Positions 48,941 through 63,138 of a DNA stretch of 64,000 bases are shown one piece after another (position 1 is the stretch's first letter; each line of letters opens with the position of its first letter). A program made the position numbers and the translations under genes. The DNA is taken from the NCBI RefSeq assembly GCF_048403405.1, contig NZ_CP183129.1; one strand, given 5' to 3'. This DNA is from Escherichia coli (lineage in GTDB: Bacteria; Pseudomonadota; Gammaproteobacteria; Enterobacterales; Enterobacteriaceae). The notes under the pieces were generated by a model that was not told the DNA's origin, made no database searches, and saw nothing but the letters and a program-made list of their open reading frames with translations.

Positions 48941-49145
48941 GGACATAAATCCATTTTATCAATAAGATACGAGGAAGTGTCAGCTGACAAAAGGTATTCT
49001 ATTTCATCTTTTGTCAACCATTCACGGCGTAAATATACGCCTTTTTTTGTGATCACTCCGGCTTTTTTTGATCTTCATACTTGTATGGTAGTAGCTCAGT
49101 TGCGTAGATTTCATGCATCACGACAAGCGATGCAAGGAATCGAAC

Positions 49146-50360
49146 ATGAAGATCGTAAAGGCTGAAGTTTTTGTTACCTGTCCGGGGCGTAATTTCGTCA
49201 CATTAAAAATCACCACTGAGGACGGTATTACGGGCCTTGGGGATGCCACCCTCAATGGACGTGAGCTTTCCGTGGCCTCTTATTTGCAGGATCACCTTTG
49301 TCCGCAGCTTATTGGTCGCGATGCACACCGTATCGAAGATATCTGGCAGTTTTTCTATAAAGGAGCTTACTGGCGTCGCGGCCCGGTGACGATGTCGGCC
49401 ATTTCAGCGGTTGATATGGCGCTGTGGGATATTAAAGCCAAAGCTGCCAACATGCCGCTTTACCAGTTACTCGGCGGCGCGTCTCGTGAAGGGGTGATGG
49501 TTTATTGCCATACCACCGGTCACAGTATTGATGAAGCTCTGGATGATTATGCTCGTCATCAGGAGCTGGGATTCAAAGCCATCCGCGTGCAGTGCGGAAT
49601 CCCTGGTATGAAAACCACCTACGGCATGTCGAAAGGTAAAGGTCTGGCTTATGAACCCGCAACCAAAGGACAGTGGCCGGAAGAGCAGCTGTGGTCGACG
49701 GAGAAATACCTCGATTTCATGCCGAAATTGTTTGACGCGGTACGTAACAAGTTTGGTTTTAATGAACATTTGCTGCATGACATGCACCATCGCTTAACGC
49801 CTATTGAAGCGGCGCGCTTTGGTAAAAGCATTGAAGATTATCGCATGTTCTGGATGGAAGACCCGACGCCTGCGGAAAACCAGGAATGCTTCCGTCTCAT
49901 TCGCCAACATACCGTCACACCCATCGCGGTGGGTGAAGTCTTCAACAGCATCTGGGACTGCAAGCAACTGATTGAAGAGCAACTTATCGATTATATCCGC
50001 ACCACGCTGACCCATGCAGGCGGAATTACCGGTATGCGCCGGATTGCCGATTTTGCTTCGTTGTATCAGGTACGTACTGGCTCACACGGTCCTTCCGATT
50101 TGTCACCAGTCTGCATGGCTGCGGCGCTGCACTTTGATCTGTGGGTCCCCAATTTCGGTGTTCAGGAGTACATGGGTTATTCCGAACAAATGCTTGAAGT
50201 CTTCCCGCACAACTGGACTTTCGATAACGGCTATATGCATCCGGGAGACAAACCGGGTCTTGGCATCGAATTCGATGAAAAGCTGGCGGCGAAATATCCC
50301 TATGAACCTGCTTATCTGCCAGTCGCACGTCTGGAAGATGGCACGCTGTGGAACTGGTAA
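49146..50360 (+). CDS. rspA: starvation-sensing protein RspA (enolase-superfamily mannonate dehydratase-like)
   Basis: Recalled 404-aa RspA from [17 protein letters not shown] (atg at 49146). Confidence 0.9.
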
Positions 50361-50371
50361 GGAGTAAGATA

Positions 50372-51391
50372 ATGAAAAGCATTTTAATTGAAAAACCGAA
50401 TCAACTGGCAATTATCGAACGCGAAATACCCACCCCGTCAGCGGATGAAGTACGAGTAAAAGTGAAACTTGCCGGAATTTGTGGTTCGGATAGCCATATT
50501 TATCGTGGGCATAATCCTTTTGCGAAATATCCGCGCGTCATTGGTCATGAATTCTTTGGCGTCATTGATGCAGTGGGTGAAGGCGTGGAAAGCGCCAGAG
50601 TCGGTGAACGCGTTGCTGTCGATCCGGTGGTCAGCTGTGGGCATTGCTATCCGTGCTCTATAGGTAAGCCGAACGTTTGTACAACACTGGCTGTATTAGG
50701 TGTGCACGCTGACGGTGGTTTCAGTGAATATGCCGTGGTTCCGGCAAAAAATGCGTGGAAAATTCCTGAAGCAGTGGCCGATCAATATGCGGTGATGATC
50801 GAACCTTTTACCATTGCGGCGAACGTAACCGGTCATGGTCAACCGACTGAAAATGATACCGTTCTGGTTTACGGTGCCGGTCCAATCGGCCTGACGATCG
50901 TTCAGGTATTAAAAGGCGTCTATAACGTTAAAAATGTGATTGTTGCCGATCGCATTGATGAACGACTGGAAAAAGCGAAAGAGAGCGGGGCTGACTGGGC
51001 GATTAATAACAGCCAGACACCGCTTGGCGAGATTTTCGCTGAAAAAGGCATAAAGCCGACATTAATTATCGATGCGGCTTGCCATCCTTCAATCCTGAAA
51101 GAAGCCGTAACGCTGGCTTCTCCGGCGGCACGTATTGTATTGATGGGCTTCTCCAGTGAACCGTCTGAAGTGATTCAGCAAGGAATTACCGGAAAAGAAC
51201 TCTCTATTTTCTCTTCACGCTTAAATGCAAATAAATTCCCGGTCGTTATCGACTGGTTAAGTAAAGGGTTAATTAAACCAGAAAAATTAATTACCCATAC
51301 GTTTGATTTCCAGCATGTTGCTGATGCCATTAGTTTATTTGAACAGGATCAAAAACATTGCTGCAAAGTCTTACTCACTTTTTCTGAATAA
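50372..51391 (+). CDS. rspB: starvation-sensing protein RspB (Zn-dependent alcohol dehydrogenase family)
   Basis: Recalled 339-aa RspB from MKSILIEKPNQLAI (atg at 50372, AAGGAG RBS); zinc-ligand GHEFFG and GCG motifs. Confidence 0.9.
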   Translation: MKSILIEKPNQLAIIEREIPTPSADEVRVKVKLAGICGSDSHIYRGHNPFAKYPRVIGHEFFGVIDAVGEGVESARVGERVAVDPVVSCGHCYPCSIGKPNVCTTLAVLGVHADGGFSEYAVVPAKNAWKIPEAVADQYAVMIEPFTIAANVTGHGQPTENDTVLVYGAGPIGLTIVQVLKGVYNVKNVIVADRIDERLEKAKESGADWAINNSQTPLGEIFAEKGIKPTLIIDAACHPSILKEAVTLASPAARIVLMGFSSEPSEVIQQGITGKELSIFSSRLNANKFPVVIDWLSKGLIKPEKLITHTFDFQHVADAISLFEQDQKHCCKVLLTFSE

Positions 51392-51448
51392 TACCAATAA
51401 CGGCGAGTAAGTAGTACGCATCTTACCTCTTTTTTAGAGATAACCATT

Positions 51449-51559
51449 ATGACAATAGAAAAACACGAAAGAAGCACTAAGGATTTGGTGAAAGCAGCAG
51501 TATCGGGATGGCTGGGCACAGCGCTTGAATTTATGGATTTCAAGAGTCATGCGTGTTAA
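51449..51559 (+). pseudogene. ydfJ: 5' fragment of MFS transporter gene ydfJ, truncated by prophage insertion
   Basis: Hand-translated MTIEKHERSTKDLVKAAVSGWLGTALEFMDF matches my memory of the YdfJ N-terminus; the frame then runs into a stop after 5 foreign codons (KSHAC) at the prophage junction. Confidence 0.6.
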
Positions 51560-51578
51560 CTGTTTGATAAATATTAAA

Positions 51579-52859
51579 TTAATTTTTCATTGCTTCGTTA
51601 TGGGGCATGGTTGGGGCAAACTCGCTTAACTGTGTATTTAACAAAGCTACCTGTGCATTATTGTTTTCAGACATCCATTTTCCGTATACCTGAAATACCA
51701 TTTGCGCATCTGCATGGCCCATCTGGTTTGCTATAAATGCCGGGTTAGCACCAGCTGTCAGCGACCAGCAGGCATAAGTATGTCTCGACTGATATGATTT
51801 TCGATGGCGGAGTCCGGCACGTTTTATCGCTGCGTCCCACATCTGCCTTATTGAGTCAACGGTAAAATGGTCACCATAATTTTTTACTCTCGCTGACACT
51901 TCAGGTTGAAAAACAAAGGTGCATTTTTGTTTTTCTGTTCTGCCATACTCTCTGAGGTGAACATCAATGATATGCTCTTTGCTCAGTCTCGTTAATGTCA
52001 TCTGACTCCGGAGAGCGTCGATTGCTGGCTTAATAAGATGAATGACCCGATTGGTTCCCGCCTGTGTTTTTGGTACCGTGAAACGGTCTTTTGCTAAATT
52101 TCTCCTGATCATCATTGTTCCATTTTTCAGATCTATGTCCTCCCATCCAAGTGCACACAGCTCACCAGGGCGAACGCCAGTATAAACAGAAACACACCAT
52201 AAATTTTTGGCTTGCTGATTTCTGCACGCATCGATAAGACGGATGAATTCCTCCCGCGAAAGAGGATCCGGAATGGTTCTTGATTCCTTTAATGGCGAGA
52301 TCCCCTTAAACGGATTATCTGCCAGGTAACCGTTATCAACACCAAACTGGAACACGGCGTTAAGATTTGTCATGTAATTATTTACAGTTACAGCCGATCT
52401 CCCTGGTTGTGTAACAATATAGTTACTTTTGGGGATCTGGTATCCAGTCAGTAGCTCTTTACGAACCTCCAGTAATTTTTCTTTATTAATCGATGAGGCA
52501 AGATTTTTTTCACCGATTATGCTCAGGATATTTTTGATGACGGCACGGTATGTGTTGAGTGATGTTTTGGCGACTTCAGTTTCTTTCAGTGCCAGAAATT
52601 TTTCAGCCAGTTCTTTTATGGTTAAATCTTGTCGGGCCTCACCAAATTTTTCCAGATTGCGTGAGGAGGGAAACTGTTTTGCATAGTCGAAAACACCAGT
52701 TTTTATTGCGTAACAAACAGAGGAGCGTAGTTCACCTGCAACGCGCCTGTTTTTTGCTGTGTCAGGAACCCCCAGATTTTCCCTGACTCTTACGCCTTTA
52801 TAAACAAACCAGATACGTAATTTCCCTCCATGGTTTTCCACGCCTGTCGGATATTTCAT
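51579..52859 (-). CDS. phage tyrosine integrase (lambda Int family)
   Basis: About 426-aa protein with an R...HxxR...Y-type catalytic C-terminus (GLRHRKSYQSRHTYA region). Start placed at the Met with the better upstream purine-rich spacing; the supplied ORF start at 52874 is the alternative. Confidence 0.85.
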   Translation of the reverse strand: MKYPTGVENHGGKLRIWFVYKGVRVRENLGVPDTAKNRRVAGELRSSVCYAIKTGVFDYAKQFPSSRNLEKFGEARQDLTIKELAEKFLALKETEVAKTSLNTYRAVIKNILSIIGEKNLASSINKEKLLEVRKELLTGYQIPKSNYIVTQPGRSAVTVNNYMTNLNAVFQFGVDNGYLADNPFKGISPLKESRTIPDPLSREEFIRLIDACRNQQAKNLWCVSVYTGVRPGELCALGWEDIDLKNGTMMIRRNLAKDRFTVPKTQAGTNRVIHLIKPAIDALRSQMTLTRLSKEHIIDVHLREYGRTEKQKCTFVFQPEVSARVKNYGDHFTVDSIRQMWDAAIKRAGLRHRKSYQSRHTYACWSLTAGANPAFIANQMGHADAQMVFQVYGKWMSENNNAQVALLNTQLSEFAPTMPHNEAMKN

Positions 52860-52893
52860 TTCAACTTCTCTCATTAGTTAGTGTGGCTTTTAG

Positions 52894-53145
52894 TCAAGTA
52901 AGATGACGTCTTGGTCTCGCTGATGCCTGGCGCTCAATCCAGCGATCAATTTCTTCCAGGTTGTAAAAGCATGGACTGTTATCCCATGGCATACCGTCAT
53001 GAGCGACATGCTTATATTCCCTTCCTTCCATAAACGATTTTTCCCGGGCCTTTTTTAACGTACCTTTTTTTATTCCTTTCAGCGCAATTAACTGCTCTTC
53101 GGATACCCATTTGCCGGGAGAGACAATCATGATTACTTCGCTCAT
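52894..53145 (-). CDS. excisionase-like small DNA-binding protein
   Basis: 83-aa basic protein directly upstream of the integrase in the same orientation; annotated by size and position. Confidence 0.6.
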   Translation of the reverse strand: MSEVIMIVSPGKWVSEEQLIALKGIKKGTLKKAREKSFMEGREYKHVAHDGMPWDNSPCFYNLEEIDRWIERQASARPRRHLT

Positions 53146-53217
53146 CGATTTCTTTATCTCTTACATCAGACGAGCGCCGGTTGCAGAATACCAGTCACAA
53201 CCGGCGACAGTTGAACA

Positions 53218-55689
53218 TTAAGAATCAGCCTGACTCGGGATCAGTTTTTGCCAGATAACTGAAACGTATTTTGCCTGGTAACGGGCGTCATCAAGTGCAT
53301 TATGGCGCTCACCTTCGAATGGAATAGCCGTTCTGGCATCGAAGTCTATGGCTTTCCCCAGCTCAACGATTGTGCGTACATCGCGATCGTTGTAGTAACG
53401 CCACGGGCAGGGGATCCCCTGCCGTTCGTATGAACGGCGCAAAATCGTGTTGTCGAAGTTGGCTCCATTTCCCCAAACCTGAACAAAAAATTCACCGGAG
53501 TTTTCGTCGATAAATTCCCGCAATTGTAACAGTGCATCATCTAACGGGATTTCATCGGTCATAATGGCAGATTGCGCTTCGCGTGATTGCTTAAGCCACC
53601 ATTTAATGGTGTCCCGATCAATGACTCCGCCAGCAGTTTCCAGATCGATAGTCTTACTAAATTCCGGTCCCATATCTCCGGTTTGCGGATCGAAAAATAT
53701 TGCACCTATTGAGATGATCGGGGCATCAGGATTTTTTCCCATGGTTTCAAGGTCGATCATTAGATGGTCACACGTCCTGCTGGTGGATGTGATTTCGTGA
53801 TGACCGTTCACCTTAATTGGGTGATCTGCCGTCTCGCCAGTTTCATTATCGCTATTGTGATGCTGATTGCCGCCAGTGTTCTCCTTGTGTGGATGTTCAG
53901 CGCCTTCCATTTCCTCCGGATCATCTTCCTGAACTTCAACCTGATACTCTTCATCGAATGTTTCTTGGTATGTTGCGTCGCCCATCACCGCGCCACAATC
54001 AGGGCAGTTGCCGCCGCCGGTCTGACCGCAGGCGGTGCAGGCTTTTTCCACTTCCTGTTGCGCCACTGGTTCAGGCTGTTTCGTTTCTGGCTCGTTTTGT
54101 AACGCATTTGGACTGTTTTGTTCCGCTTTTTGGTAGTTCCGTTCCGATTCATGCTGGTTCTGGTTCACAGAATCGCGGGTCTGGATCCCCTTAACCCATT
54201 TCGGATCATTCGGGTCACTAATCCCTTCAACAAATTCACCACGTGATGCAGCAAGCAACTTATCGGCGTCAGGCTGGCTGATATTGGCTGCCTGCATAAT
54301 TTTGTTTACTTCGTCAGCGGTAACTTTTATCGGCTCTGGTTGTTCTGAATCTTCAGCGGTATCTACATTTTGCGGTAAGCCCGTGTATGTGCCATTTTTT
54401 CGGGCAAAATATTCTTCTTTTGTGATTTCAGTGGCGCCAGCAGCCAGTGCCTTATCCAGACCAGAAAGTTTGTTTGCGCGACCGTATTTTTCTCCGTCCT
54501 TATCTGCGAAGAGGAAATAGAACGGCCCCTCACGCTCTACAGATGGTTCAGTTTCCGGCGCGGTTTCATTTTTTGGGATATCAGATACCTCAGTTTCCAC
54601 TGCATCAGTTTGTGTTTCTGATGACTGGAGAACAGCAACAGTGCCCAGGTCTGTTTCTTCATTCTCAAACACGCCCTTTGTCGTCAGGTATTCGCAGATA
54701 TATTTGTTCAGTGCTACGGGATCTTTGTGAATGTCGATCGGACGCTCACGGACAAGGCCAAAAATAGTTTGGCGGTCGTAGCGAAGGGCATCAGGCTGTT
54801 TGCGTATTGATGCCGAGATACGCTTCCAGTCTTCGCGGTCGTTGTCGATAACTTCTTTTTTTGCCCAGCGATGGATGCTGCCGTCAATGTTTCCGGCATC
54901 CACATCACCAGGCCAGAGAGCGTAGGCCAGTTCGTCATCCAGTGTTTTCCATGTCTGCTTGTATTCGCGATGAATGGCAGCAATGACCGAGCTGATTTTT
55001 CCTGTTGAATTTTCAGTGTACTGTTGATTGGCTCTGGCGCGGGCGAGATCAACAACAGACGTGTATTTTCCGGTTTCCTTGCGTTCACCTTCGCGACGTT
55101 TTTTCCAGATGCGCATCTCTGCCTGAATTTCGGGCCATTTAGCACCAGGAATACATTTATGCTTAACCCACCCAATGGCGTGCAACTTAAGCTCCGGATA
55201 CATGGCGTTAACTTCTGGCATTTTCATCAACGCTTCAACGATATGTCCGTCGAATGTTGCCATGTCTTCCTGCAACAATTCCTGTGCGCTAATAACCATA
55301 TCAACGGTGATGTTTTCACATGTGTCGAACTTAACCATGACAGCGTTCTGTACTTCAGGGGCCAGCTTGTCAAAAGTGACGTTCATCGGATCGGATTCAG
55401 TCTCAACCGGGACAAAAGAAGCAGACTCCTCATCCCAGCGGTTTTCCTGCATATATTCAGCATCCCATGAATCGAGGGCAGGGCGGGGTATGCCAGGTTT
55501 ATCCTCGCAGACAATAAATTTATAAGCGCAGTCCTGAGCAGCCGGATAATGTTCCAGGAATTGCCAGTGAAATTTTGCTCGAGCACGGCGTTCGTCGCCA
55601 GCTTCAATGGCTGTGGCTACAGCCACAGCGCCTTCTTCCCTTGTTGCCAGTTCGTCAGGAATAGCGGCGCAAATAAAGACTTTACTCAT
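53218..55689 (-). CDS. prophage exonuclease (exodeoxyribonuclease VIII-like; C-terminal DEDDh/DnaQ-type 3'-5' exonuclease domain)
   Basis: 823-aa protein; the C-terminal part has Exo I (MIDLETMG), Exo II (GANFD) and Exo III (HNALDDA) motifs; a central acidic low-complexity tract with a CxxC-x7-CxxC knuckle (CTACGQTGGGNCPDC). It sits where K-12 Qin has the truncated ydfE. Confidence 0.75.
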   Translation of the reverse strand: MSKVFICAAIPDELATREEGAVAVATAIEAGDERRARAKFHWQFLEHYPAAQDCAYKFIVCEDKPGIPRPALDSWDAEYMQENRWDEESASFVPVETESDPMNVTFDKLAPEVQNAVMVKFDTCENITVDMVISAQELLQEDMATFDGHIVEALMKMPEVNAMYPELKLHAIGWVKHKCIPGAKWPEIQAEMRIWKKRREGERKETGKYTSVVDLARARANQQYTENSTGKISSVIAAIHREYKQTWKTLDDELAYALWPGDVDAGNIDGSIHRWAKKEVIDNDREDWKRISASIRKQPDALRYDRQTIFGLVRERPIDIHKDPVALNKYICEYLTTKGVFENEETDLGTVAVLQSSETQTDAVETEVSDIPKNETAPETEPSVEREGPFYFLFADKDGEKYGRANKLSGLDKALAAGATEITKEEYFARKNGTYTGLPQNVDTAEDSEQPEPIKVTADEVNKIMQAANISQPDADKLLAASRGEFVEGISDPNDPKWVKGIQTRDSVNQNQHESERNYQKAEQNSPNALQNEPETKQPEPVAQQEVEKACTACGQTGGGNCPDCGAVMGDATYQETFDEEYQVEVQEDDPEEMEGAEHPHKENTGGNQHHNSDNETGETADHPIKVNGHHEITSTSRTCDHLMIDLETMGKNPDAPIISIGAIFFDPQTGDMGPEFSKTIDLETAGGVIDRDTIKWWLKQSREAQSAIMTDEIPLDDALLQLREFIDENSGEFFVQVWGNGANFDNTILRRSYERQGIPCPWRYYNDRDVRTIVELGKAIDFDARTAIPFEGERHNALDDARYQAKYVSVIWQKLIPSQADS

Positions 55690-55782
55690 TTTGTTTTAAC
55701 CTCATGACAGATTTAAGGATGAACAAATCCCTGCCATTGCTGGAATATAAGAATGAAACCGGATATTTATTACGGAACTGTT

Positions 55783-55974
55783 TTAAAGACCTGCCGGGAT
55801 TTCGATATTATCCTGGTGAATAACTTTATCGACCGGGTAACAGTTACCGGGAATTTTCTGTTCGGTTGCTGCAGTCATACACTCCTGCATTGTCCTGTGA
55901 ACACTGACTGCAATATCAACTGGCACTCCGGAAACAAGAAAAACTGTCAGAACAAGCGCAAATGCTGAATTCAT
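55783..55974 (-). CDS. ydfD: prophage lysis protein YdfD
   Basis: 63-aa protein MNSAFALVLTVFLVSGVPVDIAVSVHRTMQECMTAATEQKIPGNCYPVDKVIHQDNIEIPAGL, close to my memory of K-12 YdfD; N-terminal hydrophobic segment. Confidence 0.85.
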   Translation of the reverse strand: MNSAFALVLTVFLVSGVPVDIAVSVHRTMQECMTAATEQKIPGNCYPVDKVIHQDNIEIPAGL

Positions 55975-56159
55975 TGTGCACATCCTTTTGGCATCAGACG
56001 TAAACGAGCCAGCATTGAAACAATGCATATTTTATTTAATAGCTCCCGTTCTTGTTTTCTCTTGTTAATGGCATCTTCAGTAAATACAGGGTTACTGATA
56101 GTGACACCAATTTCAAAACAACCTTCAGACGTATTAACGTTTGGTAATAACGTTTTCAT
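55971..56159 (-). CDS. dicB: cell-division inhibitor DicB
   Basis: 62-aa protein MKTLLPNVNTSEGCFEIGVTISNPVFTEDAINKRKQERELLNKICIVSMLARLRLMPKGCAQ, matching my memory of DicB; 4-nt overlap with ydfD. Confidence 0.9.
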   Translation of the reverse strand: MKTLLPNVNTSEGCFEIGVTISNPVFTEDAINKRKQERELLNKICIVSMLARLRLMPKGCAQ

Positions 56160-56333
56160 TATCGCGTCCTCAACAATGAATTTTGTGATGCAGTGCCTGG
56201 TGCCTCCAGGTGACGTTAACCAGTTAACAATTAACGTCGGATACAGAGAATCCACCCATAACACTGTTTTTGGTTTTAACTGTTCCGCGTGCGCTTAGCC
56301 GCATTCACCGCATCACAAAATTCACTTTAAAAA

Positions 56334-56386
56334 CGGCGGCAGAGCAGTCACGGAGTAAAACTGATACCGCCAAACGTCACCAGAAA
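56334..56386 (-). ncRNA. dicF: DicF small regulatory RNA
   Basis: Minus-strand sequence TTTCTGGTGACGTTTGGCGGTATCAGTTTTACTCCGTGACTGCTCTGCCGCC matches my memory of the 53-nt DicF; the exact 3' end is not determinable from sequence. Confidence 0.85.
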
Positions 56387-56645
56387 ATTGATAACAGAGG
56401 GCGTTGCAGCGGGGTTGTCACTTAAGCGTATGGTCAACCTGACAACTCGGTGTCCTCAACGGGGAAGGAATAACCCCGCCATACTTACCGCCGCGCCATT
56501 TTGCGGGTTGCCACAACCGGAAGCGCACGGTCGAATTAAATTTAACGACACCGTACAGTGAGACGAACTTCGCCGTGCGCTTTCGTGTTGTGTGCCTGCT
56601 TTTAACCACGTCAGGCGAGGTGGTATCCTTAAAATCACCACAGTT

Positions 56646-57221
56646 TTAAGGATTCATTAAGCAATGTCGCAACCACCAATAAATCCGCTTAAGAACATGA
56701 AAATTGATTACTGGTATAAAGCGCTTACAGTTGTTGGCGCTGCGTTGTTTGTCTTTAATGGAACGTCTTTTTTTGACAGATATCCCGTTGTTCCATTGGG
56801 TTTTTTGTCCTCCGGCATCTTTTTTATTGGTTTGGGGGAGTGGATTAATCACCCTCTCAAAGTGAGATTTATTGGTCCTGGAGTTTGGACTCGTGGATAT
56901 AATCGTTCTTCGTGCGCACTCGGTATCATCTTCGACATACTTGGTTGTTTCCTGATTGTTACAGGAGTCGTCAAGTTCTTCTGATGTAAAACCGCAAATG
57001 GGGCACGTAACGGGAATTTTGAAAAGCGTTTCTCCGGGTTCCAGAACAAAATTTTCTGCGGTCTGATTTTGCTTCTCATATTTGTGCTCCGCGTCATTGT
57101 GAGAGCACATTCTTATTCTGAGTGCCTGTTTAAACTCACTGAAGCTGAGAGCTTCTTCGCCTTCGGCAAGGCCTTCGAAGTATTCTTCGTAAGCCTTTTC
57201 CATGATTGTGTCGAAATCCAT
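56646..57221 (-). CDS. hypothetical early-left protein (ydfB/ydfC region)
   Basis: Start MDFDTIMEKAYEEYFEGL at 57221 with AGGTGAG RBS, 1 nt after the ydfA stop; contains a CPxC knuckle (PVTCPICGF). The C-terminal two-thirds is low-complexity N/K/R-rich and overlaps the plus-strand ORF, so the true 3' end is uncertain. Confidence 0.45.
   Translation of the reverse strand: MDFDTIMEKAYEEYFEGLAEGEEALSFSEFKQALRIRMCSHNDAEHKYEKQNQTAENFVLEPGETLFKIPVTCPICGFTSEELDDSCNNQETTKYVEDDTECARRTIISTSPNSRTNKSHFERVINPLPQTNKKDAGGQKTQWNNGISVKKRRSIKDKQRSANNCKRFIPVINFHVLKRIYWWLRHCLMNP
56664..56984 (+). CDS. candidate 106-aa three-helix membrane protein, antisense to the early-left operon
   Basis: ORF with three hydrophobic segments and basic residues in the loops, AAGGA about 11 nt upstream of the ATG, G-rich first codon positions. 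It is exactly codon-antisense to the 3' part of the minus-strand ORF 56646..57221, so only one of the two is likely to be real. Confidence 0.4.
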   Translation: MSQPPINPLKNMKIDYWYKALTVVGAALFVFNGTSFFDRYPVVPLGFLSSGIFFIGLGEWINHPLKVRFIGPGVWTRGYNRSSCALGIIFDILGCFLIVTGVVKFF

Positions 57222-57222
57222 A

Positions 57223-57378
57223 TCACTCACCTGAGTTTCTTTCCAGCCAGCGACGGGCACCATTTTCGGTTTTAAACGTTTTGCTTTTGGTATACGTCAT
57301 CGCGGTGAACGTGCCGTCCTGGTTGGGGAACACGCCACATACCAGAGATTCGCTGTTGCCAAGATCGATAGTATCCAT
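57223..57378 (-). CDS. ydfA: small prophage protein YdfA
   Basis: 51-aa protein MDTIDLGNSESLVCGVFPNQDGTFTAMTYTKSKTFKTENGARRWLERNSGE, matching my memory of K-12 YdfA; first gene after the left operator. Confidence 0.8.
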   Translation of the reverse strand: MDTIDLGNSESLVCGVFPNQDGTFTAMTYTKSKTFKTENGARRWLERNSGE

Positions 57379-57491
57379 GCTGACCTCATTTCCCCTTAAC
57401 GCCGGGGTCGCGGAACTGTTTGCTGAGAACACCGTGCGGTGTCTTGATGGAAAGTAATTTAGAATAACCTAACATGAGAGGCAAGTGTTTT

Positions 57492-57511
57492 TTGTTAGAT
57501 TGATCTAACAA
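57492..57511. promoter_or_regulatory. palindromic operator (GTTAGA-N4-TCTAAC) between dicA and ydfA (early-left promoter region)
   Basis: Seen in sequence: TTGTTAGAT-TG-ATCTAACAA, perfect 9-bp half-sites; same half-site as the operator in the dicA-dicC intergenic region. Confidence 0.65.
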
Positions 57512-57546
57512 AAAGAGTGGGCGCAACTAATCACTTGAAAAGAATG

Positions 57547-57954
57547 TTATTTTATTGATTTATTTTTACGCGCTTTAAGCATTTCTTCGAAGAGTTTGTT
57601 GAAGTTTTCTACTCTTGCGCGCATTTCAGACAGCAAGGCTTCCTGCTCGGAAGATGGAAGAGCATCGAATAATTCGATCAATTCTTTGTGGTTGGGAGTT
57701 AGCTCTGTTTCCACATGAAGTTCTTGTGCAGGCACTGGTGCCTTGTCTTCGTCACCAAACATTAGCCATGTAGGTGAGCACTTCAGAGCATCCGCTAAAG
57801 CAAACAATCGTTTTCCGACTGGCTGGGTTTCGTCTCTTTCCCATTGTGAAATTGTGACGTGAGCAACTCCAGCGAGGCGCGCAGCTTCTCGTTGTGTTAA
57901 GCGTAATTCTTTTCGTCGCGCCAGAACTCGCTGGCCTAGGGTTCTTGTATCCAT
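57547..57954 (-). CDS. dicA: DicA-like HTH_XRE immunity repressor (cI functional analogue)
   Basis: 135-aa protein with XRE-type HTH (LRLTQREAARLAGVAHVTISQWERDE); similar to, but clearly diverged from, my remembered K-12 DicA; divergent from the Cro-like gene. Confidence 0.85.
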   Translation of the reverse strand: MDTRTLGQRVLARRKELRLTQREAARLAGVAHVTISQWERDETQPVGKRLFALADALKCSPTWLMFGDEDKAPVPAQELHVETELTPNHKELIELFDALPSSEQEALLSEMRARVENFNKLFEEMLKARKNKSIK

Positions 57955-57976
57955 AGTTAGGTAATTCTAATTTTTC

Positions 57977-58020
57977 TTGACTTAGGTATCCCGCGCACAA
58001 TAATGTTAGAAAAGTCTAAC
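57977..58020 (+). promoter_or_regulatory. dicC-type promoter with overlapping palindromic operator
   Basis: TTGACT (57977..57982), about 18-bp spacer, TAATGT (58001..58006), overlapped by the palindrome GTTAGA-AAAG-TCTAAC (58005..58020); GGGGG RBS before the dicC-like start. Confidence 0.6.
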
Positions 58021-58031
58021 AAGAGGGGGCT

Positions 58032-58262
58032 TTGATGCTTAAAGTTGACGCAATTACTTTTTTTGGCAGCAAAACAAAGCTTGCCAATGCCGCAGGAGTG
58101 AGACTGGCAAGTGTTGCTGCTTGGGGGATACTGGTTCCTGAAGGTCGCGCGATGCGTCTACAGGAGGCATCTGGCGGGGAGCTTCAGTATGATCCCAAAG
58201 TTTATGACGAATATCGTAAGACGAAGCGGGCGGGGCGGTTGAACAATGAAAATCACTCCTGA
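58032..58262 (+). CDS. dicC: DicC-like Cro-type repressor
   Basis: 76-aa protein; its C-terminal half (EGRAMRLQEASGGELQYDPKVYDEYRKTKRAGRLNNENHS) matches my memory of DicC. Confidence 0.85.
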   Translation: MMLKVDAITFFGSKTKLANAAGVRLASVAAWGILVPEGRAMRLQEASGGELQYDPKVYDEYRKTKRAGRLNNENHS

Positions 58263-58767
58263 ACAGGCTCGTGAGGCTCTGGATGCCTGGATATGTCGAC
58301 CAGGAATGACACAGGAGCAGGCGACGATATTAATCACTGAAGCATTCTGGGCTTTGAAAGAGCGCCCGAACATCGATGTTCAGCGTGTCACATATGAAGG
58401 TGGCGCGGTTGATCAGCGAGCGCTTAGCGTTAATCGAGTGAAGATATTCGAACGCTGGAAGGCTATCGACACCAGGGATAAGCGTGAAAAGTTCACAGCG
58501 CTAGTGCCTGCAATTATGGAGGCTATCCGGATTAGTGATTTCAGGTTGTATCGTGAGATCAGTGATGGAAAAAGTATTACGTACATGATCGCCGGGTTAA
58601 ATAAAGAATATGGCGATGTGGTGGAATCCGGACTGCTTTTTGCAGATCCTGCCGTTGTAGATCGTGAAACTGACGAACTTATAGAAAAAGCAATTGCTTT
58701 CAAGCTTGCGTATCGACAGCAATACCAACAAAAAGCTGGATGGAATTATGAGTCTTCTTTTTGCTGA
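58246..58767 (+). CDS. hypothetical protein in the cII-equivalent position (possibly YdaT-like)
   Basis: 173-aa ORF overlapping the dicC-like 3' end by 17 nt; the YdaT/cII-analogue assignment is by position only. Confidence 0.4.
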   Translation: MKITPEQAREALDAWICRPGMTQEQATILITEAFWALKERPNIDVQRVTYEGGAVDQRALSVNRVKIFERWKAIDTRDKREKFTALVPAIMEAIRISDFRLYREISDGKSITYMIAGLNKEYGDVVESGLLFADPAVVDRETDELIEKAIAFKLAYRQQYQQKAGWNYESSFC

Positions 58768-59713
58768 ACGCCCACTGGTTATAAACACGCAGCTGGCAAT
58801 GAAAATCGGCTTAAACGAAGCCATTGTTTTGCAACAACTGCACTACTGGTTGAGAGATACCAACTCCGGTATGGAATGTGATGGTGTTCGCTGGATTTAT
58901 AACACAACGGAACAATGGCTGGAACAGTTCCCATTCTGGTCAGAGTCAACGTTAAAGCGCGCGTTTGCAAGTCTGAAAACGCTGGGGCTTTTGCGTTGTG
59001 AAAAGCTCAATAAATCAAAGCGCGATATGACCAATTTCTACACGATCAACTATGGGAGCGAGCTTTTAGATGGTGGCAAATTGAACGAATCCATCGGTTC
59101 AAAATGCGCCGCTCCATCAGGTCAAAATGACACGATGGAAGAGGTCAAAATGAAACGCTCCATTGGTTCAAAACGACCCAATGTCATCGGGTCAAAATGG
59201 CCTGATGATCTTACAGAGAATACAACAGAGATTACTACAGAGAATAAAAACACTTTTCGTCCGGAAGCTTCGCAACCGGACCCGCAGACGACTGAACAGG
59301 ATTTTTTAACCCGGAACCCCGACGCGGTTGTGTTTAGTGTGAAAAAACGCCAGTGGGGTAGCAGGGAGGATTTGGCGTGTGCGCAGTGGATTTGGGGGCG
59401 GATCGTGAACCTTTACGAACAGGCTGCCAGCGACGATGGAGAGATCATGCGACCAAAAGAGCCTAACTGGACAGCCTGGGCCAATGACGTGCGCACAATG
59501 CGGATGCTGGATGGCAGAAGCCACAGACAAATTTGCGAAATGTTTGGTCGGGTACAGCGGGATCCATTCTGGGTAAAAAACATCATGAGCCCGTCAAAAC
59601 TCCGCGAAAAATGGGACGAACTGGTCATCCGCCTGGGACGTTCACCTGTACAGCGTTGTGTTAATCATATTTCTGAACCGGATACAGAAATTCCGCCTGG
59701 TTTCAGGGGATAA
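58748..59713 (+). CDS. phage replication initiator / replisome organiser (lambda O-like)
   Basis: N-terminal wHTH-like segment (LAMKIGLNEAIVLQQLHYWL) typical of phage replisome-organiser N-domains; the gene contains an iteron array followed by an AT-rich tract; the protein has the corresponding IGSK peptide repeats. Start codon uncertain (58694 or 58748). Confidence 0.7.
   Translation: MSLLFAERPLVINTQLAMKIGLNEAIVLQQLHYWLRDTNSGMECDGVRWIYNTTEQWLEQFPFWSESTLKRAFASLKTLGLLRCEKLNKSKRDMTNFYTINYGSELLDGGKLNESIGSKCAAPSGQNDTMEEVKMKRSIGSKRPNVIGSKWPDDLTENTTEITTENKNTFRPEASQPDPQTTEQDFLTRNPDAVVFSVKKRQWGSREDLACAQWIWGRIVNLYEQAASDDGEIMRPKEPNWTAWANDVRTMRMLDGRSHRQICEMFGRVQRDPFWVKNIMSPSKLREKWDELVIRLGRSPVQRCVNHISEPDTEIPPGFRG
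59093..59200. repeat. origin-like iteron array inside the O-like gene
   Basis: Five direct repeats of (A/T)TCNGGT(T)CAAAA(T/C)G spaced 21-25 bp apart (about 59096, 59120, 59144, 59165, 59190), followed by an AT-rich stretch (about 59200..59260). Confidence 0.65.
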
Positions 59714-59753
59714 GTGTTGATTTCAGGTCATGAGATAATTTTAAGGGGGACTT

Positions 59754-60155
59754 GTGGCAAAAGTTTTTACACAAGAAGAGCGGGAAAAAATTAAAGGGCA
59801 GGTTGTTGAACTCGTACGCCGGAGTGGGCGTGAGACGTTACGGCAACTGGAAGTCAAGACAGGTGCGACAAGATATCTGATGAGCGTTCTCGCAAGAGAG
59901 CTGGTTGCCAGCGGCGATGTATACAACTCTGGTTACGGGTTATTCCCGTCTGAACAGGCGCGTAAGGACTGGCAAAATGCCCGTAAAAAGCTCTCAAGGG
60001 CAAAGCTGAAGAAACCATCTGCGGTTGATCCGGACCTTATCTGGTCATTACCTGACGGAGAAATACGTCGCTACGACAGGCGTCAGAACATAATCTGCCG
60101 CGAGTGCCGGAAGAGTGAAGTTATGCAGCGCATACTGGCATTTTATCAGGGATAA
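59754..60155 (+). CDS. hypothetical prophage protein
   Basis: 133-aa ORF with GTG start and strong AAGGGGGA RBS; basic, contains a CxxC pair (CRECRK); function unknown. Confidence 0.55.
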   Translation: MAKVFTQEEREKIKGQVVELVRRSGRETLRQLEVKTGATRYLMSVLARELVASGDVYNSGYGLFPSEQARKDWQNARKKLSRAKLKKPSAVDPDLIWSLPDGEIRRYDRRQNIICRECRKSEVMQRILAFYQG

Positions 60156-60688
60156 TGTTAGGTATTTTAGACGTTACTAGATTAAAAAGCATTAGTTCAG
60201 GAGTGAATTGACATTCTCATTTTTCATGGCACAGGGTAGATCTGGCGTGGTTGTCCGCTTTGTGCCAACAGCGGACGTTACTAACGAAACTGTGAGTTAA
60301 AAACGGGAGCTGGTCACCTCCATCCCGCGAAATGGAATTCAAAAATGCCCTCATGTACGGTACTTCTAGTCTGATGTGAGCATTTTCGTGGATTTTTTCG
60401 AGCCACTCCAACGAATGATTACATTCAGTTTCGGGCACTAAAACGTCATAAATCCGCAAGTTGAGGAGTAGCGATCAGCCAATTGGTTAAAAAACAGCTT
60501 TAATTCCCTTTTTCAAGCAGGCTCCTTGTCGCACGTCTGGTGCATCCAATTCATTTCAGTTACCCTGATGCCATACTGGCACGGACTAGCTCTCTTAATT
60601 GGCGCTGGTTTGTTAACCTTGTCCGCTGTCGGGTCTTTGTAAGTTGTAATTCCTAAACTAGCATAATTTTATTATAAGGCCTCTTACT

Positions 60689-61714
60689 ATGCACATTTTA
60701 TCTGTTTCAAAAAAGGAAGTTGGAAGAGCTGGGGATAGATTAGTTTCTCAGTTTGGTACAGGTGAAAAATATAAAGAGGAAGATGTACAAATTCTTCATG
60801 AGTGGAGGATGTTGCATTTATATCCTTTAAGTAAAATACAATTTTATATGGAAAGAGAGGCTATTTCCTTAAACAAAAATGCGTTACTATCCTCTAGAAT
60901 TAAGAGGATGCCTTCCATTGTTACTAAGCTTTCTAGATTTCCTGATATGAAGTTAAATAAGATGCAGGATCTTGGTGGGTGCCGGGCTATTTTAAATAAT
61001 CTGGATCAAGTGTATGATTTAGTTAATAAAATAAAATCATCTAAATTCTCACATGAACTAGTTAGAATGGATGATTACATGATAGACGTGAAAGATTCTG
61101 GTTATAGAAGCTTTCATATGGTCTATTCATTCCAAAATAAAAAATTTCCATCTTTAAATGGGTTGCGCATTGAAATGCAAATAAGAACAGCTATTCAACA
61201 TAGCTGGGCTACAGCAGTTGAAATGGTTGGTTTGTTTCGAAAGGAATCATTGAAATCTGGTTTTGGTGATGCAAGATGGCTTAGGTTTTTTGAATTGGTA
61301 TCAGAGCTTTTTTATAAACTTGAGTATGAAAAAGAACCATCTGGGAGTTATATAAAAATATCAGAAGAATTAAGTTATTTATCCGTCGAGTTGAATGTTT
61401 TCGATATATTAGCTGCTTACAATGCCGTAGTTAGCCATATTGAGGGTAGCAAAAAATATGATAAAGGACTTTGCATAATTGTTGTTGATACCATAAAGCG
61501 GAATATAAATATAAAGAGCTTCGAAAATCACAATCATGCGAAGGCGGCAGAAGCTTATGTCGAGTCTGAAAAATACTGCGCGGAAAATAAAGGCTGTGAA
61601 GTGGCTATGGTTTCTGTTAGTTCAATTAGTGAATTAAAAAATGCATATCCTGCTTACTTTTTAGATACGAAAACTTTTTTAAATTATCTCAGTAGGTATG
61701 TTTTTATAAAATAA
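60689..61714 (+). CDS. RelA/SpoT-domain nucleotide pyrophosphokinase (toxSAS-like; candidate fused CapRel-type toxin-antitoxin defence protein)
   Basis: 341-aa protein with the four synthetase motifs in order: RIKRMPSIVTK, DLGGCRAIL, YRSFHMVY, EMQIRTAIQHSWATAVE. No HD hydrolase, TGS or ACT domains; about 130 C-terminal residues unassigned. The gene is markedly AT-rich compared with its flanks. Confidence 0.8.
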   Translation: MHILSVSKKEVGRAGDRLVSQFGTGEKYKEEDVQILHEWRMLHLYPLSKIQFYMEREAISLNKNALLSSRIKRMPSIVTKLSRFPDMKLNKMQDLGGCRAILNNLDQVYDLVNKIKSSKFSHELVRMDDYMIDVKDSGYRSFHMVYSFQNKKFPSLNGLRIEMQIRTAIQHSWATAVEMVGLFRKESLKSGFGDARWLRFFELVSELFYKLEYEKEPSGSYIKISEELSYLSVELNVFDILAAYNAVVSHIEGSKKYDKGLCIIVVDTIKRNINIKSFENHNHAKAAEAYVESEKYCAENKGCEVAMVSVSSISELKNAYPAYFLDTKTFLNYLSRYVFIK

Positions 61715-62448
61715 AAAATGTTATCTGGAGTGGTCTGAATTCTACTAACTTAGTTTTTTCAGACCGCTTCTGACCACAATGGCCTGTGAGGTTCTGCTGC
61801 TAGTCAACATAAAATAACAAAGCCGGCAGGTGGTGGTTGTTGTAAAGTTATTCAATGACATTCATGGAGGCTTAAGCGAATTATTTGTCCCTGGTCGGTA
61901 TGGTGGCAACAGCTTGTTGCGAGAATTTGGCTAATTTGGACTGACTTCCGCTCCTTGCTCAAAGCGGACTAGAAGGTTAGCTTGTGTCGGACTTTGCGTA
62001 TTAAAAGAAGTGCTGGTGGTGACTAGTGGTTGAGCCCCATTTCCACAGAAAAAATCAGAGAAACTATACCCAATAGTTGTATTGAATCACTGACGAGACA
62101 GCCTCATATTCATCAGGACTGGTGTACGTCCAATACAGGAGGTTGTGGTGCTGGTTCTCAAATGTGCGCTGGCTATTACGGCTGTAATGGCGATTTATTG
62201 TCTTGCTATTGTTCTTATGGATCGCCTTTCTGACTGATTTCATATTGGCGAGGTAAAGGTAGTTAAGTAGAATGGCTGCGGGTGCTTGAGGCTATCTGCC
62301 TCGGGCATGAACACCAAAGGCAGATAGAGAAAAGCCCCAGTTAACATTACGCGTCCTGCAAGACGCTTAACATTAATCTGAGGCCAATTTCATGCTAGAC
62401 ACATGTAGGTTAGCCTCTTACGTGCCGGAAGGCAAGGAGAAGCAGGCT

Positions 62449-62604
62449 ATGAAGCAGCAAAAGGCGATGTTAATCGCCCTGATCGTCATCTGTTTAACCG
62501 TCATAGTGACGGCACTGGTAACGAGGAAAGACCTCTGCGAGGTACGAATCCGAACCGGCCAGACGGAGGTCGCTGTCTTCACAGCTTACGAACCTGAGGA
62601 GTAA
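62449..62604 (+). CDS. hokD: Hok/Gef-family membrane toxin
   Basis: 51-aa protein MKQQKAMLIALIVICLTVIVTALVTRKDLCEVRIRTGQTEVAVFTAYEPEE, matching my memory of HokD; AAGGAGA RBS; upstream fold-back elements typical of hok mRNAs. No relB/relE ORFs are present upstream. Confidence 0.9.
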   Translation: MKQQKAMLIALIVICLTVIVTALVTRKDLCEVRIRTGQTEVAVFTAYEPEE

Positions 62605-62820
62605 GAGACCCGGCGAGGGAGAAATCCCTCGCCACCTCTGATGTGGCAGGCATCCTCAACGCACCCGCACTTAACCCGCTTCGGCGGGTTTTTGTTTTTA
62701 TTTTCAACGCGTTTGAAGTTCTGGACGGTGCCGGAATAGAATCAAAAATACTTAAGTAGCGCGCAGGGATAAGAGGGATGGTCCCTTAAAGGGGAGAGCT
62801 AATTATCCGGAAGAATTCTG

Positions 62821-63072
62821 ATGATGAACATCGAAGAACTGCGTAAAATTTTTTGTGAAGATGGCCTCTATGCTGTGTGCGTTGAAAATGGAAATCTTGT
62901 TAGTCATTACCGCATTATGTGTTTGCGAAAGAATGGGGCTGCGTTAATTAATTTTGTGGATGGTCGAGTGACAGACGGATTTATCTTGCGCGAAGGTGAG
63001 TTTGTCACTTCATTACAGGCACTGAAAGAGATCGGAATAAAAGCAGGCTTTTCAGCTTTTGCAGAAGAATAA
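62821..63072 (+). CDS. rem: Qin prophage protein Rem
   Basis: 83-aa protein MMNIEELRKIFCEDGLYAVCVENG..., matching my memory of K-12 Rem; downstream of hokD as in K-12. Confidence 0.8.
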   Translation: MMNIEELRKIFCEDGLYAVCVENGNLVSHYRIMCLRKNGAALINFVDGRVTDGFILREGEFVTSLQALKEIGIKAGFSAFAEE

Positions 63073-63138
63073 ACTCATCTACAATCTTGCGCGGGGCTGA
63101 ACTCCCGCTGAGTAACACCGTGCCACCGGAGAAAACCG

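Follow-up and report, generated by a model that had tools for sequence, protein, structure and literature searches.

An intact dicF-dicB-ydfD module in the probable early-left operon of a Qin-type lambdoid prophage of Escherichia coli

The products of the dicF-dicB-ydfD module are already well characterised from the Qin prophage of Escherichia coli K-12. DicB acts through MinC and ZipA (PMC6832061), whereas YdfD, when expressed ectopically, lyses E. coli via inhibition of IspG, which its N-terminal domain is reported to bind; this lysis occurs only in cells that are dividing, and expressing DicB or SulA alongside YdfD prevents it (PMC8835842). The sRNA DicF is processed by RNase III as well as RNase E, with the RNase III site yielding a 190-nt precursor (PMC10448788). 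Comparable functions are found in lambda (Kil) and Rac (KilR), where a small division inhibitor is encoded at the same position of a repressor-controlled early-left operon, although the sequences are unrelated to DicB. To our knowledge, lambda has no DicF-like sRNA. According to PMC3961180, the inhibition of FtsZ by Kil is ZipA-dependent.

The window analysed here, a stretch of 64,000 nucleotides of E. coli DNA, holds the left 12.5 kb of an element that, judged by its sequence, is a Qin-type lambdoid prophage inserted next to rspB. As in K-12 Qin, the site adjoins rspB and the genes follow the order dicC, dicA, ydfA, dicF, dicB, ydfD; the hairpin cut by RNase III, the dicB leader, the operator half-sites, the promoter layout and rem are also shared. 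The module is an intact copy of the known dicF-dicB-ydfD and by homology corresponds to the early-left "kil-type" part of a Qin-like temperate phage. We consider it very probable that the region represents the early-left (pL-type) operon of this prophage, with dicF, dicB and ydfD intact and under the control of a repressor. The original prediction that all three were present and apparently intact was confirmed, the relevant features being as follows:

55783-55974, minus strand: ydfD, lysis protein (DUF1482), 63 aa (open reading frame; Pfam PF07358; K-12 alignment)
55971-56159, minus strand: dicB, cell-division inhibitor, 62 aa (Pfam PF05358; NCBIfam NF049927; K-12 alignment)
56160-56333, minus strand: dicF-dicB spacer, forming the structured dicB leader (folding; K-12 alignment)
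56334-56386, minus strand: DicF sRNA, 53 nt including the terminator hairpin (Rfam RF00039; K-12 alignment)
56511-56595, minus strand: long hairpin preceding DicF, equivalent to the RNase III site of K-12 (folds; K-12 alignment)

DicB matched both Pfam PF05358 (E 2e-40, 136.8 bits, cutoff 27) and NCBIfam NF049927 (132.8 bits, cutoff 100) over its full length, and is identical to the K-12 protein at every position (62/62, 100%). The match of YdfD to Pfam PF07358 was similarly clear (E 2e-25, 88.7 bits, cutoff 25), with 61 of its 63 residues identical to K-12 YdfD and the substitutions V6A and E17V accounting for the remainder. DicF was recovered over model positions 1-52 of 52 by Rfam RF00039 (72.5 bits, gathering threshold 48, E 5e-14), and 52 of its 53 nucleotides are those of K-12 dicF, the sole change being C to G at the unpaired last base. 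When aligned exactly to K-12 Qin, as had been suggested as a check, ydfD, dicB and dicF proved free of frameshifts, stops and insertions, and this ruled out the idea that the module is a pseudogene or carries a lesion. The predicted 4-nt overlap of dicB and ydfD was seen as an ATGA at 55971-55974 (ydfD ATG, 55974-55972; dicB TGA, 55973-55971), and because the two genes are translationally linked in this way they are expected to be co-expressed. From its identity to the K-12 protein, DicB would be expected to bind MinC and block the Z ring (PMC6832061). Inhibition of IspG and lysis of dividing cells by YdfD are putative here; V6A and E17V fall in the N-terminal domain reported to bind IspG.

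The RNA structures around DicF are also conserved. The window and K-12 versions of the upstream hairpin adopt the same fold of about 24 bp, with the differences being G-U to G-C changes on one side, and the position equivalent to the 5' end of the 190-nt DicF precursor is 56523. Homology to K-12 starts at 56603, just upstream of this hairpin, and extends through the 5' flank of DicF; the conserved hairpin and flank together predict that DicF is processed here as in K-12. The dicB leader differs from that of K-12 by four substitutions and is strongly structured (MFE -66.1 kcal/mol, z -5.7; 0/200 shuffles folded equally well), with a long closing helix in the predicted fold joining the sequence that follows the DicF terminator to the region abutting the dicB Shine-Dalgarno. 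It is common to P7 and to the kilR leader of phage Rac-SA53, the latter being 90% identical to the ~165-nt leader upstream of dicB, and the consensus fold contains 46 pairs, 4 of them with compensatory changes. In an Rfam E-value search of 55600-58300 the only match besides DicF was a sub-threshold one to STnc100, in the dicB leader (33.5 bits, cutoff 47).

The original prediction also held that derepression would lyse the cells, and this is not what the literature indicates, as co-expression of DicB prevents YdfD lysis (PMC8835842). The same finding bears on the possibility that the module is a host-killing cassette, which once derepressed would stop division and also use YdfD to lyse the host. 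An intact YdfD, together with the lysis through IspG inhibition obtained on ectopic expression, would fit such a role, but that lysis is division-dependent and is blocked by DicB or SulA, and dicB and ydfD would be co-expressed through the ATGA overlap. Furthermore, derepression in K-12 causes filamentation and inhibits growth, but neither effect is seen in a dicB dicF double mutant that retains ydfD (PMC10448788), and the full-length relatives of the present element would lyse their hosts by a holin/endolysin cassette. A host-killing role is thus improbable. Of the suggestion that DicB and DicF alter phage susceptibility, the part concerning DicB is well founded, since it gives approximately 100-fold resistance to lambda-like phages, but the part concerning DicF is not, as deletion of dicF or ydfD had minimal effect (PMC6832061). 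Thus, the earlier interpretation stands with regard to identification, intactness and regulatory context, but not for lysis on derepression or for a role of DicF in phage susceptibility.

The regulatory context that had been proposed, a DicA-like repressor with operators upstream of the module, was recovered together with a Cro-like gene and rem:

57456-57511, minus strand: dicBp-like early-left promoter with two operators (manual alignment with the dicA-ydfA intergenic region of K-12)
57474-57459: early-left operator TGTTAGGTTATTCTAA (operator repeat)
57511-57492: early-left operator TTGTTAGATCAATCTAACAA (operator repeat)
57547-57954, minus strand: DicA-family repressor, 135 aa, HTH (NCBIfam NF007257; Pfam; K-12 alignment)
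57956-58022, no strand assigned: divergent promoter/operator region (operator repeats; promoter scan)
57956-57970: operator GTTAGGTAATTCTAA, in the divergent promoter/operator region
58003-58022: operator ATGTTAGAAAAGTCTAACAA, in the divergent promoter/operator region
58035-58262, plus strand: DicC-like Cro repressor, 75 aa (NCBIfam NF007282; Pfam P22_Cro)
62821-63072, plus strand: rem, homologue of the Qin antirepressor (K-12 alignment)

The repressor passed the NCBIfam model NF007257, 'transcriptional repressor DicA' (224.7 bits, cutoff 101), but only 76 of its 135 residues (55%) are identical to K-12 DicA; Pfam detected HTH_3 alone in the protein and no S24 peptidase domain. The Cro-like protein scored 165.8 bits against the DicC model NF007282 (cutoff 130), and its C-terminal two-thirds are identical to K-12 DicC whereas the N-terminus is divergent. 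The region has the composition of a DicA/DicC-type switch: its repressor is S24-less, a Cro-like DicC gene diverges from it, and each of the two promoters has inverted-repeat operators. There are four TTAG-N6-CTAA operators, confined to the two immunity intergenic regions, compared to an expectation of 0.55 per window. Their outer half-sites are those of the experimentally validated K-12 operator Oc, TTGTTAG...CTAACAA (PMC3441716), but the centres differ. Since the operator centres differ and the repressor shares just 55% of its residues with K-12 DicA, the immunity specificity may differ from that of K-12; with the divergent DicC N-terminus as well, the element may be of another immunity type.

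The early-left promoter (TTGCCT at 57484-57479, a 17-nt spacer and TAAATT at 57461-57456; four of six consensus positions in each hexamer) is a candidate assigned from the layout it shares with the K-12 dicA-ydfA region, in which, as here, one operator sits between the -35 and the -10. A consensus scan, which gave promoter and terminator counts no higher than in shuffled sequence and so proves little alone, missed this promoter, found none for the membrane-protein gene described below, and identified a sigma-70-like promoter on the Cro side (57977-58004, plus strand; TTGACT, 16-nt spacer, AATAAT).

The 135-aa HTH repressor resembles the Gifsy-type short repressors (GfoR/GftR with GfoA) in being without the S24 autocleavage domain. 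The Rem homologue, 80 of whose 83 residues are identical to K-12 Rem, is a further likeness to Gifsy-type antirepressor control, as Rem relieves DicA repression in K-12 (PMC10448788). By analogy Rem could relieve the present, divergent repressor, but this action is putative, and the LexA-box pattern CTGT-N8-ACAG was absent from the prophage part of the window (51000-64000).

Between the early-left promoter and dicF the element departs from K-12. The remaining genes of the operon, and the gene found on the opposite strand, are:

57223-57378, minus strand: ydfA (DUF1391), first early-left gene (Pfam PF07151, E 9e-28; K-12 alignment)
56646-57221, minus strand: open reading frame of 191 aa (open reading frame; K-12 alignment)
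56664-56984, plus strand: three-TM membrane protein, 106 aa, in place of K-12 ydfC (homologues; tblastn; codon pattern)
53218-55689, minus strand: exonuclease, 823 aa, intact form of the K-12 ydfE pseudogene (open reading frame; Pfam Rv2179c-like exonuclease domain)
52894-53145, minus strand: excisionase (open reading frame; PGAP annotation of relatives at 99.4-99.8% identity)
51579-52874, minus strand: integrase, intact form of intQ (open reading frame; PGAP annotation of relatives; K-12 and HannyBb alignment)

YdfA is retained (49/51 residues identical to K-12), but the K-12 homology breaks at 56603/56604, where a 517-bp segment carrying the opposite-strand gene takes the place of ydfC in full and of the 3' part of ydfB, and of the K-12 series ydfA-ydfB-ydfC only ydfA and 34 codons of ydfB are left. 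The truncated ydfB is fused into the 191-aa frame, in which 34 aa of YdfB N-terminus are followed by a conserved ...IPVTCPICGF segment and then by about 112 codons exactly antisense to the membrane-protein gene; PGAP labels for it are inconsistent (truncated ydfB, 191-aa hypothetical protein, or none).

The opposite-strand gene belongs to a family for which we collected 60 homologues (100-112 aa, 34-100% identity, none with a Pfam domain), with the motifs DYWYKA and GLGEWINHPL invariant, and it gave no match in Pfam, PHROGs, NCBIfam or PADLOC. The segment that carries it occurs in 805 of 5426 complete E. coli genomes (~15%). Some records (HannyBb, mEp390_039 and some PGAP annotations) instead treat the 191-aa minus-strand frame as the real gene at 56646-56984. 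This was rejected, as the conserved coding frame there is that of the plus strand: tblastn to phage mEp390 gave E 4e-21 on the membrane-protein frame compared to 0.64 on the antisense frame, and substitutions are concentrated at third codon positions of the membrane-protein frame.

Lying between the promoter and dicF, and absent in K-12, the opposite-strand gene could lower read-through. In the extreme case collision, Rho polarity or an internal terminator would separate the module from its early-left promoter, leaving little or no DicF and DicB. The convergent gene inside the operon and the K-12 data, which indicate that DicF comes only from the dicBp transcript with no internal promoter (PMC10448788), are in line with such a block. 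However, the consensus scan, of limited weight alone, found no minus-strand terminator-like site between the promoter and dicF, and the minus frame is open across the antisense gene and closes some 50 nt short of the RNase III hairpin. In addition, this stop-free frame is kept in divergent phages, as expected if read-through matters, and the arrangement is stable in the 805 genomes. We therefore regard a loss of DicF and DicB expression as very unlikely.

The conservation of a stop-free frame antisense to the membrane-protein gene was, in our view, the most interesting observation made in this region. Across 13 divergent homologues the codons that would create antisense stops (TTA, CTA and TCA) were used at 0 of 205 positions, a strong signal, and a general avoidance of A-ending codons was ruled out as the cause, since such codons account for 20.7% of those in the other four-fold boxes. 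True dual coding was also rejected: in 42 pairs the antisense amino acid identity equalled the expectation for random synonymous codons (mean z -0.15), and no conservation of an antisense protein in the overlap was found beyond the constraint imposed by the sense frame. A tentative explanation, which is plausible but on which we would not rely, is a 'translate-through' cassette, in which a membrane-protein gene that is probably active in the lysogen lies antisense within an early operon, and selection has purged antisense-stop codons so that ribosomes can cross it, whether to keep dicF-dicB-ydfD-exo-xis-int free of Rho polarity or to produce a second, overprinted protein. Because the antisense protein is no more conserved than the sense frame imposes, an anti-polarity role is favoured over dual coding. 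If true, this could be a general phage solution for placing lysogeny-expressed cargo inside an early operon without polarity, the cargo being embedded antisense with its antisense frame kept stop-free.

A Qin prophage lies between rspB/ynfP and ydfJ. Here the prophage end lies near 51526 and its rspB-side junction is common to K-12 Qin; the element runs to the end of the window at 64000, and the ydfJ-side junction, beyond the window, was seen in the relative A0 34/86. The 2.6-kb block 55700-58300 is 99.6-99.8% identical to its best E. coli matches among those listed, in which PGAP annotates ydfD, dicB, ydfA and the Cro/CI pair. Phage records Tritos and vB_EcoS-640R1 also carry ydfD, dicB and dicF. 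The module itself is ordinary and occurs in most E. coli genomes, the dicBF locus being kept in 4751 of 5426 complete genomes (nearly 90%), often in several copies. This retention, the phage resistance given by DicB and the presence of only the left 12.5 kb in the window would suit a cassette that has been domesticated to serve the host within a prophage in decay, as K-12 Qin is, and that is maintained for phage defence or stress responses and not for the phage life cycle. Against this, the integrase, excisionase and 823-aa exonuclease are all intact, whereas their K-12 counterparts are pseudogenes interrupted by IS2; one relative (99.4% identity) is a full-length, ~45-kb prophage that includes terminase, capsid, tail and lysis genes; and HannyBb, a phage genome on deposit, has the same left arm (99.6% identity over 51526-57462). 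Domestication is consequently rather unlikely as the explanation, although it and a role in the phage life cycle do not exclude each other. A further difference from K-12 is that other cargo, among it a gene with a RelA/SpoT domain, stands in place of relBE and flxA. Judged from its relatives, the prophage appears to be a complete Qin-like element.

For the preferred reading, a repressor-controlled early-left operon, the gene identities, intact frames, conserved RNA-processing structures, operators and prophage context described above can be combined, by analogy, with functional steps established experimentally in K-12, where the sequences are the same or nearly so (PMC10448788, PMC6832061, PMC8835842, PMC5069750). 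In the lysogen, the DicA-family repressor would occupy the TTAG-N6-CTAA operators overlapping the early-left and divergent Cro promoters and keep the operon off, and repression could be lifted by Rem or by a spontaneous switch that the DicC-like Cro reinforces. The leftward transcript would then run through ydfA, the ydfB-derived frame, dicF, dicB, ydfD, the exonuclease, the excisionase and the integrase. RNase III would cut the hairpin upstream of dicF and RNase E would trim the product to the 53-nt DicF, which would pair with ftsZ and other mRNAs, while DicB would bring MinC to the septum and so block the Z ring; together they would cause filamentation. DicB may also block ManYZ-dependent entry of phage DNA, and DicB would be expected to mask the division-dependent lysis by YdfD, which is made from the same transcript. 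The module would thereby be the counterpart of Kil in lambda and of KilR in Rac. With a repressor only 55% identical to K-12 DicA, we are less sure of the strength of repression and of the action of Rem.

As DicF, DicB and YdfD are already known, the module adds nothing new in itself. Functional work has, however, been done almost entirely on the decayed Qin remnant of K-12, whereas here the same module is found in an apparently complete Qin-type phage with a different immunity region. This context would permit its natural role to be tested during induction and infection, with respect to a kil-type function, ManYZ-dependent superinfection exclusion and the relation of YdfD to the holin/endolysin cassette.

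By every sequence criterion tested, the dicF-dicB-ydfD module in the early-left operon of the Qin-like prophage falls within the dicBF system of K-12 Qin. As the original prediction had it, ydfD, dicB and DicF were all present and intact on the minus strand at 55783-56386, as judged from the open reading frames, matches to Rfam, Pfam and NCBIfam models, and comparison with K-12. The features of the module and its operon are:

55783-55974, minus strand: ydfD, 63 aa, passing the Pfam DUF1482 model
55971-56159, minus strand: dicB, 62 aa, passing the Pfam and NCBIfam DicB models
56160-56333, minus strand: dicF-dicB spacer, 174 nt, with a highly stable fold
56334-56386, minus strand: DicF, with an Rfam match at 56334-56385 of 72.5 bits against a gathering score of 48, over the full model length
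53218-55689: exonuclease, 823 aa
52894-53145: excisionase
51579-52874: integrase, 431 aa

Exact comparison with K-12 Qin (reference locus L002) revealed no frameshift, premature stop or insertion in the three module genes. DicB was identical at all 62 residues and YdfD at 61 of 63 (changes V6A and E17V), and DicF matched at 52 of 53 nucleotides, the sole change being C to G at the unpaired last base. The predicted 4-nt overlap of dicB and ydfD was also seen, as an ATGA in which the ATG of ydfD (55974-55972) and the TGA of dicB (55973-55971) overlap. YdfA passed the Pfam DUF1391 model and was identical to its K-12 counterpart at 49 of 51 residues.

The claim of a DicA-like repressor with conserved operators was likewise borne out, by a passed DicA model, retention of the half-sites of the K-12 operator Oc and a K-12-like layout. 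The immunity genes are:

57547-57954: DicA-family repressor with an HTH domain, NCBIfam DicA 224.7 bits (cutoff 101)
58035-58262: DicC-like gene, divergent from the repressor gene, passing the NCBIfam DicC model
62821-63072: Rem homologue, identical to K-12 Rem at 80 of 83 residues

The repressor shared only 76 of 135 residues with K-12 DicA, and a Pfam search found no S24 peptidase domain in it; the DicC-like protein was identical to K-12 DicC over its C-terminal two-thirds and differed at the N-terminus. The motif TTAG-N6-CTAA occurred four times in the 64-kb window (57459, 57495, 57957 and 58006), always in the two intergenic regions flanking the repressor gene, against 0.55 sites expected in shuffled sequence, and four sites were reached in none of 100 shuffles. 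Two of them read TTGTTAG-N6-CTAACAA or ATGTTAG-N6-CTAACAA, with the outer half-sites of K-12 Oc (TTGTTAGTCATAACTAACAA) but a different central six bases. In K-12, DicA occupies Oc in vivo, and altering one base of a half-site is enough to abolish binding (PMC3441716). By hand alignment the putative early-left promoter has the layout of the K-12 dicA-ydfA intergenic region, with a -35 element TTGCCT (TTGACC in K-12), a 17-nt spacer containing the operator and a -10 element TAAATT (TAATCT in K-12); a simple consensus scan did not flag it. The immunity type may differ from that of K-12. In K-12, repression by DicA is lifted by the antirepressor Rem (PMC10448788). Directly upstream of rem lies a plus-strand hok/sok type I toxin-antitoxin locus (62280-62603; Rfam sok, 117 bits at 62280-62454), and relatives carry an annotated hokD at the matching position.

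The window matches K-12 over rspB, ynfP and the intQ remnant and again over ydfE, ydfD, dicB and dicF, a pattern which suggests integration of the element at the Qin site. Whereas in K-12 Qin ydfE (cut by IS2) and intQ are pseudogenes, the window carries the exonuclease, excisionase and integrase instead. Strain A0 34/86 matches 48000-64000 at 99.4% identity; its element, a prophage some 45 kb long that ends at ydfJ, carries genes for terminase, portal, capsid, tail, tail fibres and lysis. The deposited Escherichia phage genome HannyBb (45,272 bp) is 99.6% identical to 51526-57462, a stretch reaching from int across the early-left promoter, and identity resumes at 95% from 58131 on. In the break between, the repressor, its operators and the first part of the Cro-like gene do not match, so the same left arm travels with different immunity regions. 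The phage records Tritos, vB_EcoS-640R1 and vB_EcoS-689R5 also contain ydfD, dicB and dicF. From these comparisons the module is best described as the 'kil-type' function in the early-left operon of a Qin-like temperate phage, with lambda Kil and Rac KilR as functional counterparts; only its immunity variant and the genes lying between promoter and dicF set it apart from K-12 Qin dicBF. The phage looks complete, judging past 64000 from its relatives only.

Other genes of the region were also noted. In the place of relBE, ydfV and flxA of K-12 Qin is a plus-strand gene (60689-61714) for a 341-aa RelA/SpoT-domain protein (Pfam PF04607) that matches the PADLOC candidate defence family PDC-S33 (E 5e-119) and phrog_4773. 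After the Cro-like gene come plus-strand genes for a YdaT-family protein (58246-58767; labelled CII-like in HannyBb) and a DUF977 protein (59754-60155; labelled Ren-like), and the Pfam YdaS/YdaT 'toxin' names fit oddly with an early-right regulator position. In the chromosomal part, two adjacent minus-strand ORFs of 808 aa each (41308-43734 and 43792-46218) are probably paralogues, possibly ynfE and ynfF of E. coli.

Homology to K-12 is 96.8% over about 1 kb (55600-56603) and so includes some 215 nt upstream of DicF. A long hairpin at 56511-56595 was the same in folds of the window and K-12 sequences, which differ by G-U to G-C changes in one arm. The counterpart of the 5' end of the K-12 190-nt DicF precursor falls at 56523 in its 3' arm, a position that agrees with published processing, in which the 190-nt species arises by RNase III cleavage and is then shortened to 53 nt by RNase E (PMC10448788). 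The dicF-dicB spacer folds at -66.1 kcal/mol (z -5.7; 0 of 200 shuffles equally stable), with the sequence directly after the DicF terminator pairing with the region abutting the dicB Shine-Dalgarno sequence. Its core shares about 90% identity with the kilR leader of phage Rac-SA53 and about 80% with a phage P7 segment; the segments compared are L015, 1482-1645, and L014, 1185-1330. A consensus fold of four sequences had 46 pairs, four with compensatory changes, and Rfam STnc100 gave a sub-threshold match (33.5 bits against a cutoff of 47). We read the spacer as a putative structured leader of early-left division-inhibitor genes, and it may be a regulatory leader common to such prophage genes.

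A sequence of events can be proposed from experiments in K-12, whose sequences here are the same or nearly so. In the lysogen the repressor would sit on operators overlapping the early-left promoter; derepression, which in K-12 occurs through Rem or by spontaneous switching requiring DicC (PMC10448788), would allow transcription through ydfA, the ydfB-derived ORF, dicF, dicB and ydfD, then exo, xis and int. DicF, once RNase III together with RNase E has released it, would repress its K-12 targets ftsZ, xylR, pykA and manXYZ (PMC6832061, PMC5069750), and DicB would act as in K-12, preventing Z-ring formation via MinC and ZipA and blocking phage DNA entry by the ManYZ route (PMC6832061). The further claim that derepression would lyse cells is at odds with published work: DicB or SulA, when co-expressed with YdfD, keeps it from lysing cells (PMC8835842), and the filamentation and growth inhibition seen on derepression in K-12 vanish in a dicB dicF double mutant (PMC10448788), so YdfD-driven lysis is not expected. 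Lysis in full-length relatives would come from the holin/endolysin cassette. Of the suggestion that DicB and DicF alter phage susceptibility, the part concerning DicB stands and that concerning DicF does not, as resistance depends on DicB and deletion of dicF or ydfD has minimal effect (PMC6832061).

Of 5426 complete E. coli genomes, 4751 contain matches to a 2.6-kb query (55700-58300), the median number of matching places in a genome being two. That the locus is widely retained, and present in multiple copies in O157:H7, is already published (PMC6832061, PMC5069750), so the module itself is already known. One feature of its neighbourhood, a membrane-protein gene with a stop-free antisense frame, could not be matched to anything described:

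56664-56984, plus strand: embedded gene, 106-aa membrane protein
56646-57221, minus strand: antisense ORF, 191 aa

At 56604-57120 an unrelated 517-bp segment, found in 805 of the 5426 genomes and nearly always at 99% identity or more, replaces the 3' end of K-12 ydfB together with the whole of ydfC. PGAP annotation of the identical 526-bp segment (56600-57125; loci L001, L004 and L005) is inconsistent across genomes, being nothing, a truncated ydfB, the 191-aa minus-strand WP_000344958.1 or the 106-aa plus-strand WP_122990131.1. We conclude that the plus-strand ORF is a real gene. For its product, 60 homologues 100-112 aa long were found in Yersinia, Herminiimonas, Reinekea and metagenomes, with identity as low as 34%, invariant DYWYKA and GLGEWINHPL motifs and three hydrophobic segments; substitutions in the gene cluster at the third positions of its codons. 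A tblastn search of phage mEp390 gave E 4e-21 on the plus frame against 0.64 on the antisense frame, and the annotated gene there, mEp390_039, lies on the strand opposite to the conserved frame. The protein had no match in Pfam, PHROGs, NCBIfam or PADLOC, and a consensus scan found no promoter for its gene. In other lambdoid prophages the homologue stands beside a CI-like repressor, opposing the early-left operon, and in mEp390-type phages directly after cro, opposing the pR operon and co-oriented with the repressor gene.

Starting as YdfB at 57221, the minus-strand ORF runs on without a stop along the exact codon-for-codon antisense of the embedded gene and ends at 56646, about 50 nt ahead of the RNase III hairpin. 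Among the loci covered (L008, L009, L012 and L068-L093), at least 12 divergent homologues on viral contigs (41-58% amino-acid identity, 41-53% G+C) also had this frame open, and their other two antisense frames had 3-17 stops. In 13 representatives the embedded gene used CTA in 0 of 126, TCA in 0 of 43 and TTA in 0 of 36 cases (0/205 in total), while A-ending codons made up 20.7% of the other four-fold boxes; the nominal probability is about 1e-17, for lineages that are not fully independent, and by the codon usage of neighbouring genes the chance of having no such codon is 0.0006-0.18 per gene. Antisense stops were present in three homologues: L010, in a non-phage context with genes on the same strand, and L067 and L083, both of 33-35% G+C. 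The minus strand is empty downstream of L067. L083, being embedded against an operon, is a counter-example.

We favour a reading in which translation continues unbroken over the embedded gene, which would shield the early transcript from Rho before dicF-dicB-ydfD-exo-xis-int. Alternatively, the frame might be kept open for an overprinted second protein. The non-overlapping N-terminal part of the ORF is conserved, with ...IPxxCP(I/V)CGF in enterobacterial and ...PGSVxxDExxxxVTLxGW in mEp390-type versions. Within the overlap, antisense identity equalled the value expected when randomly chosen synonymous codons encode the sense protein (mean z -0.15, 42 pairs), so selection seems to act against stop codons only and not on the antisense protein sequence. 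The stop-free frame speaks for a module still connected to its promoter despite the embedded gene, and the arrangement may represent a 'translate-through' anti-polarity design or overprinting.
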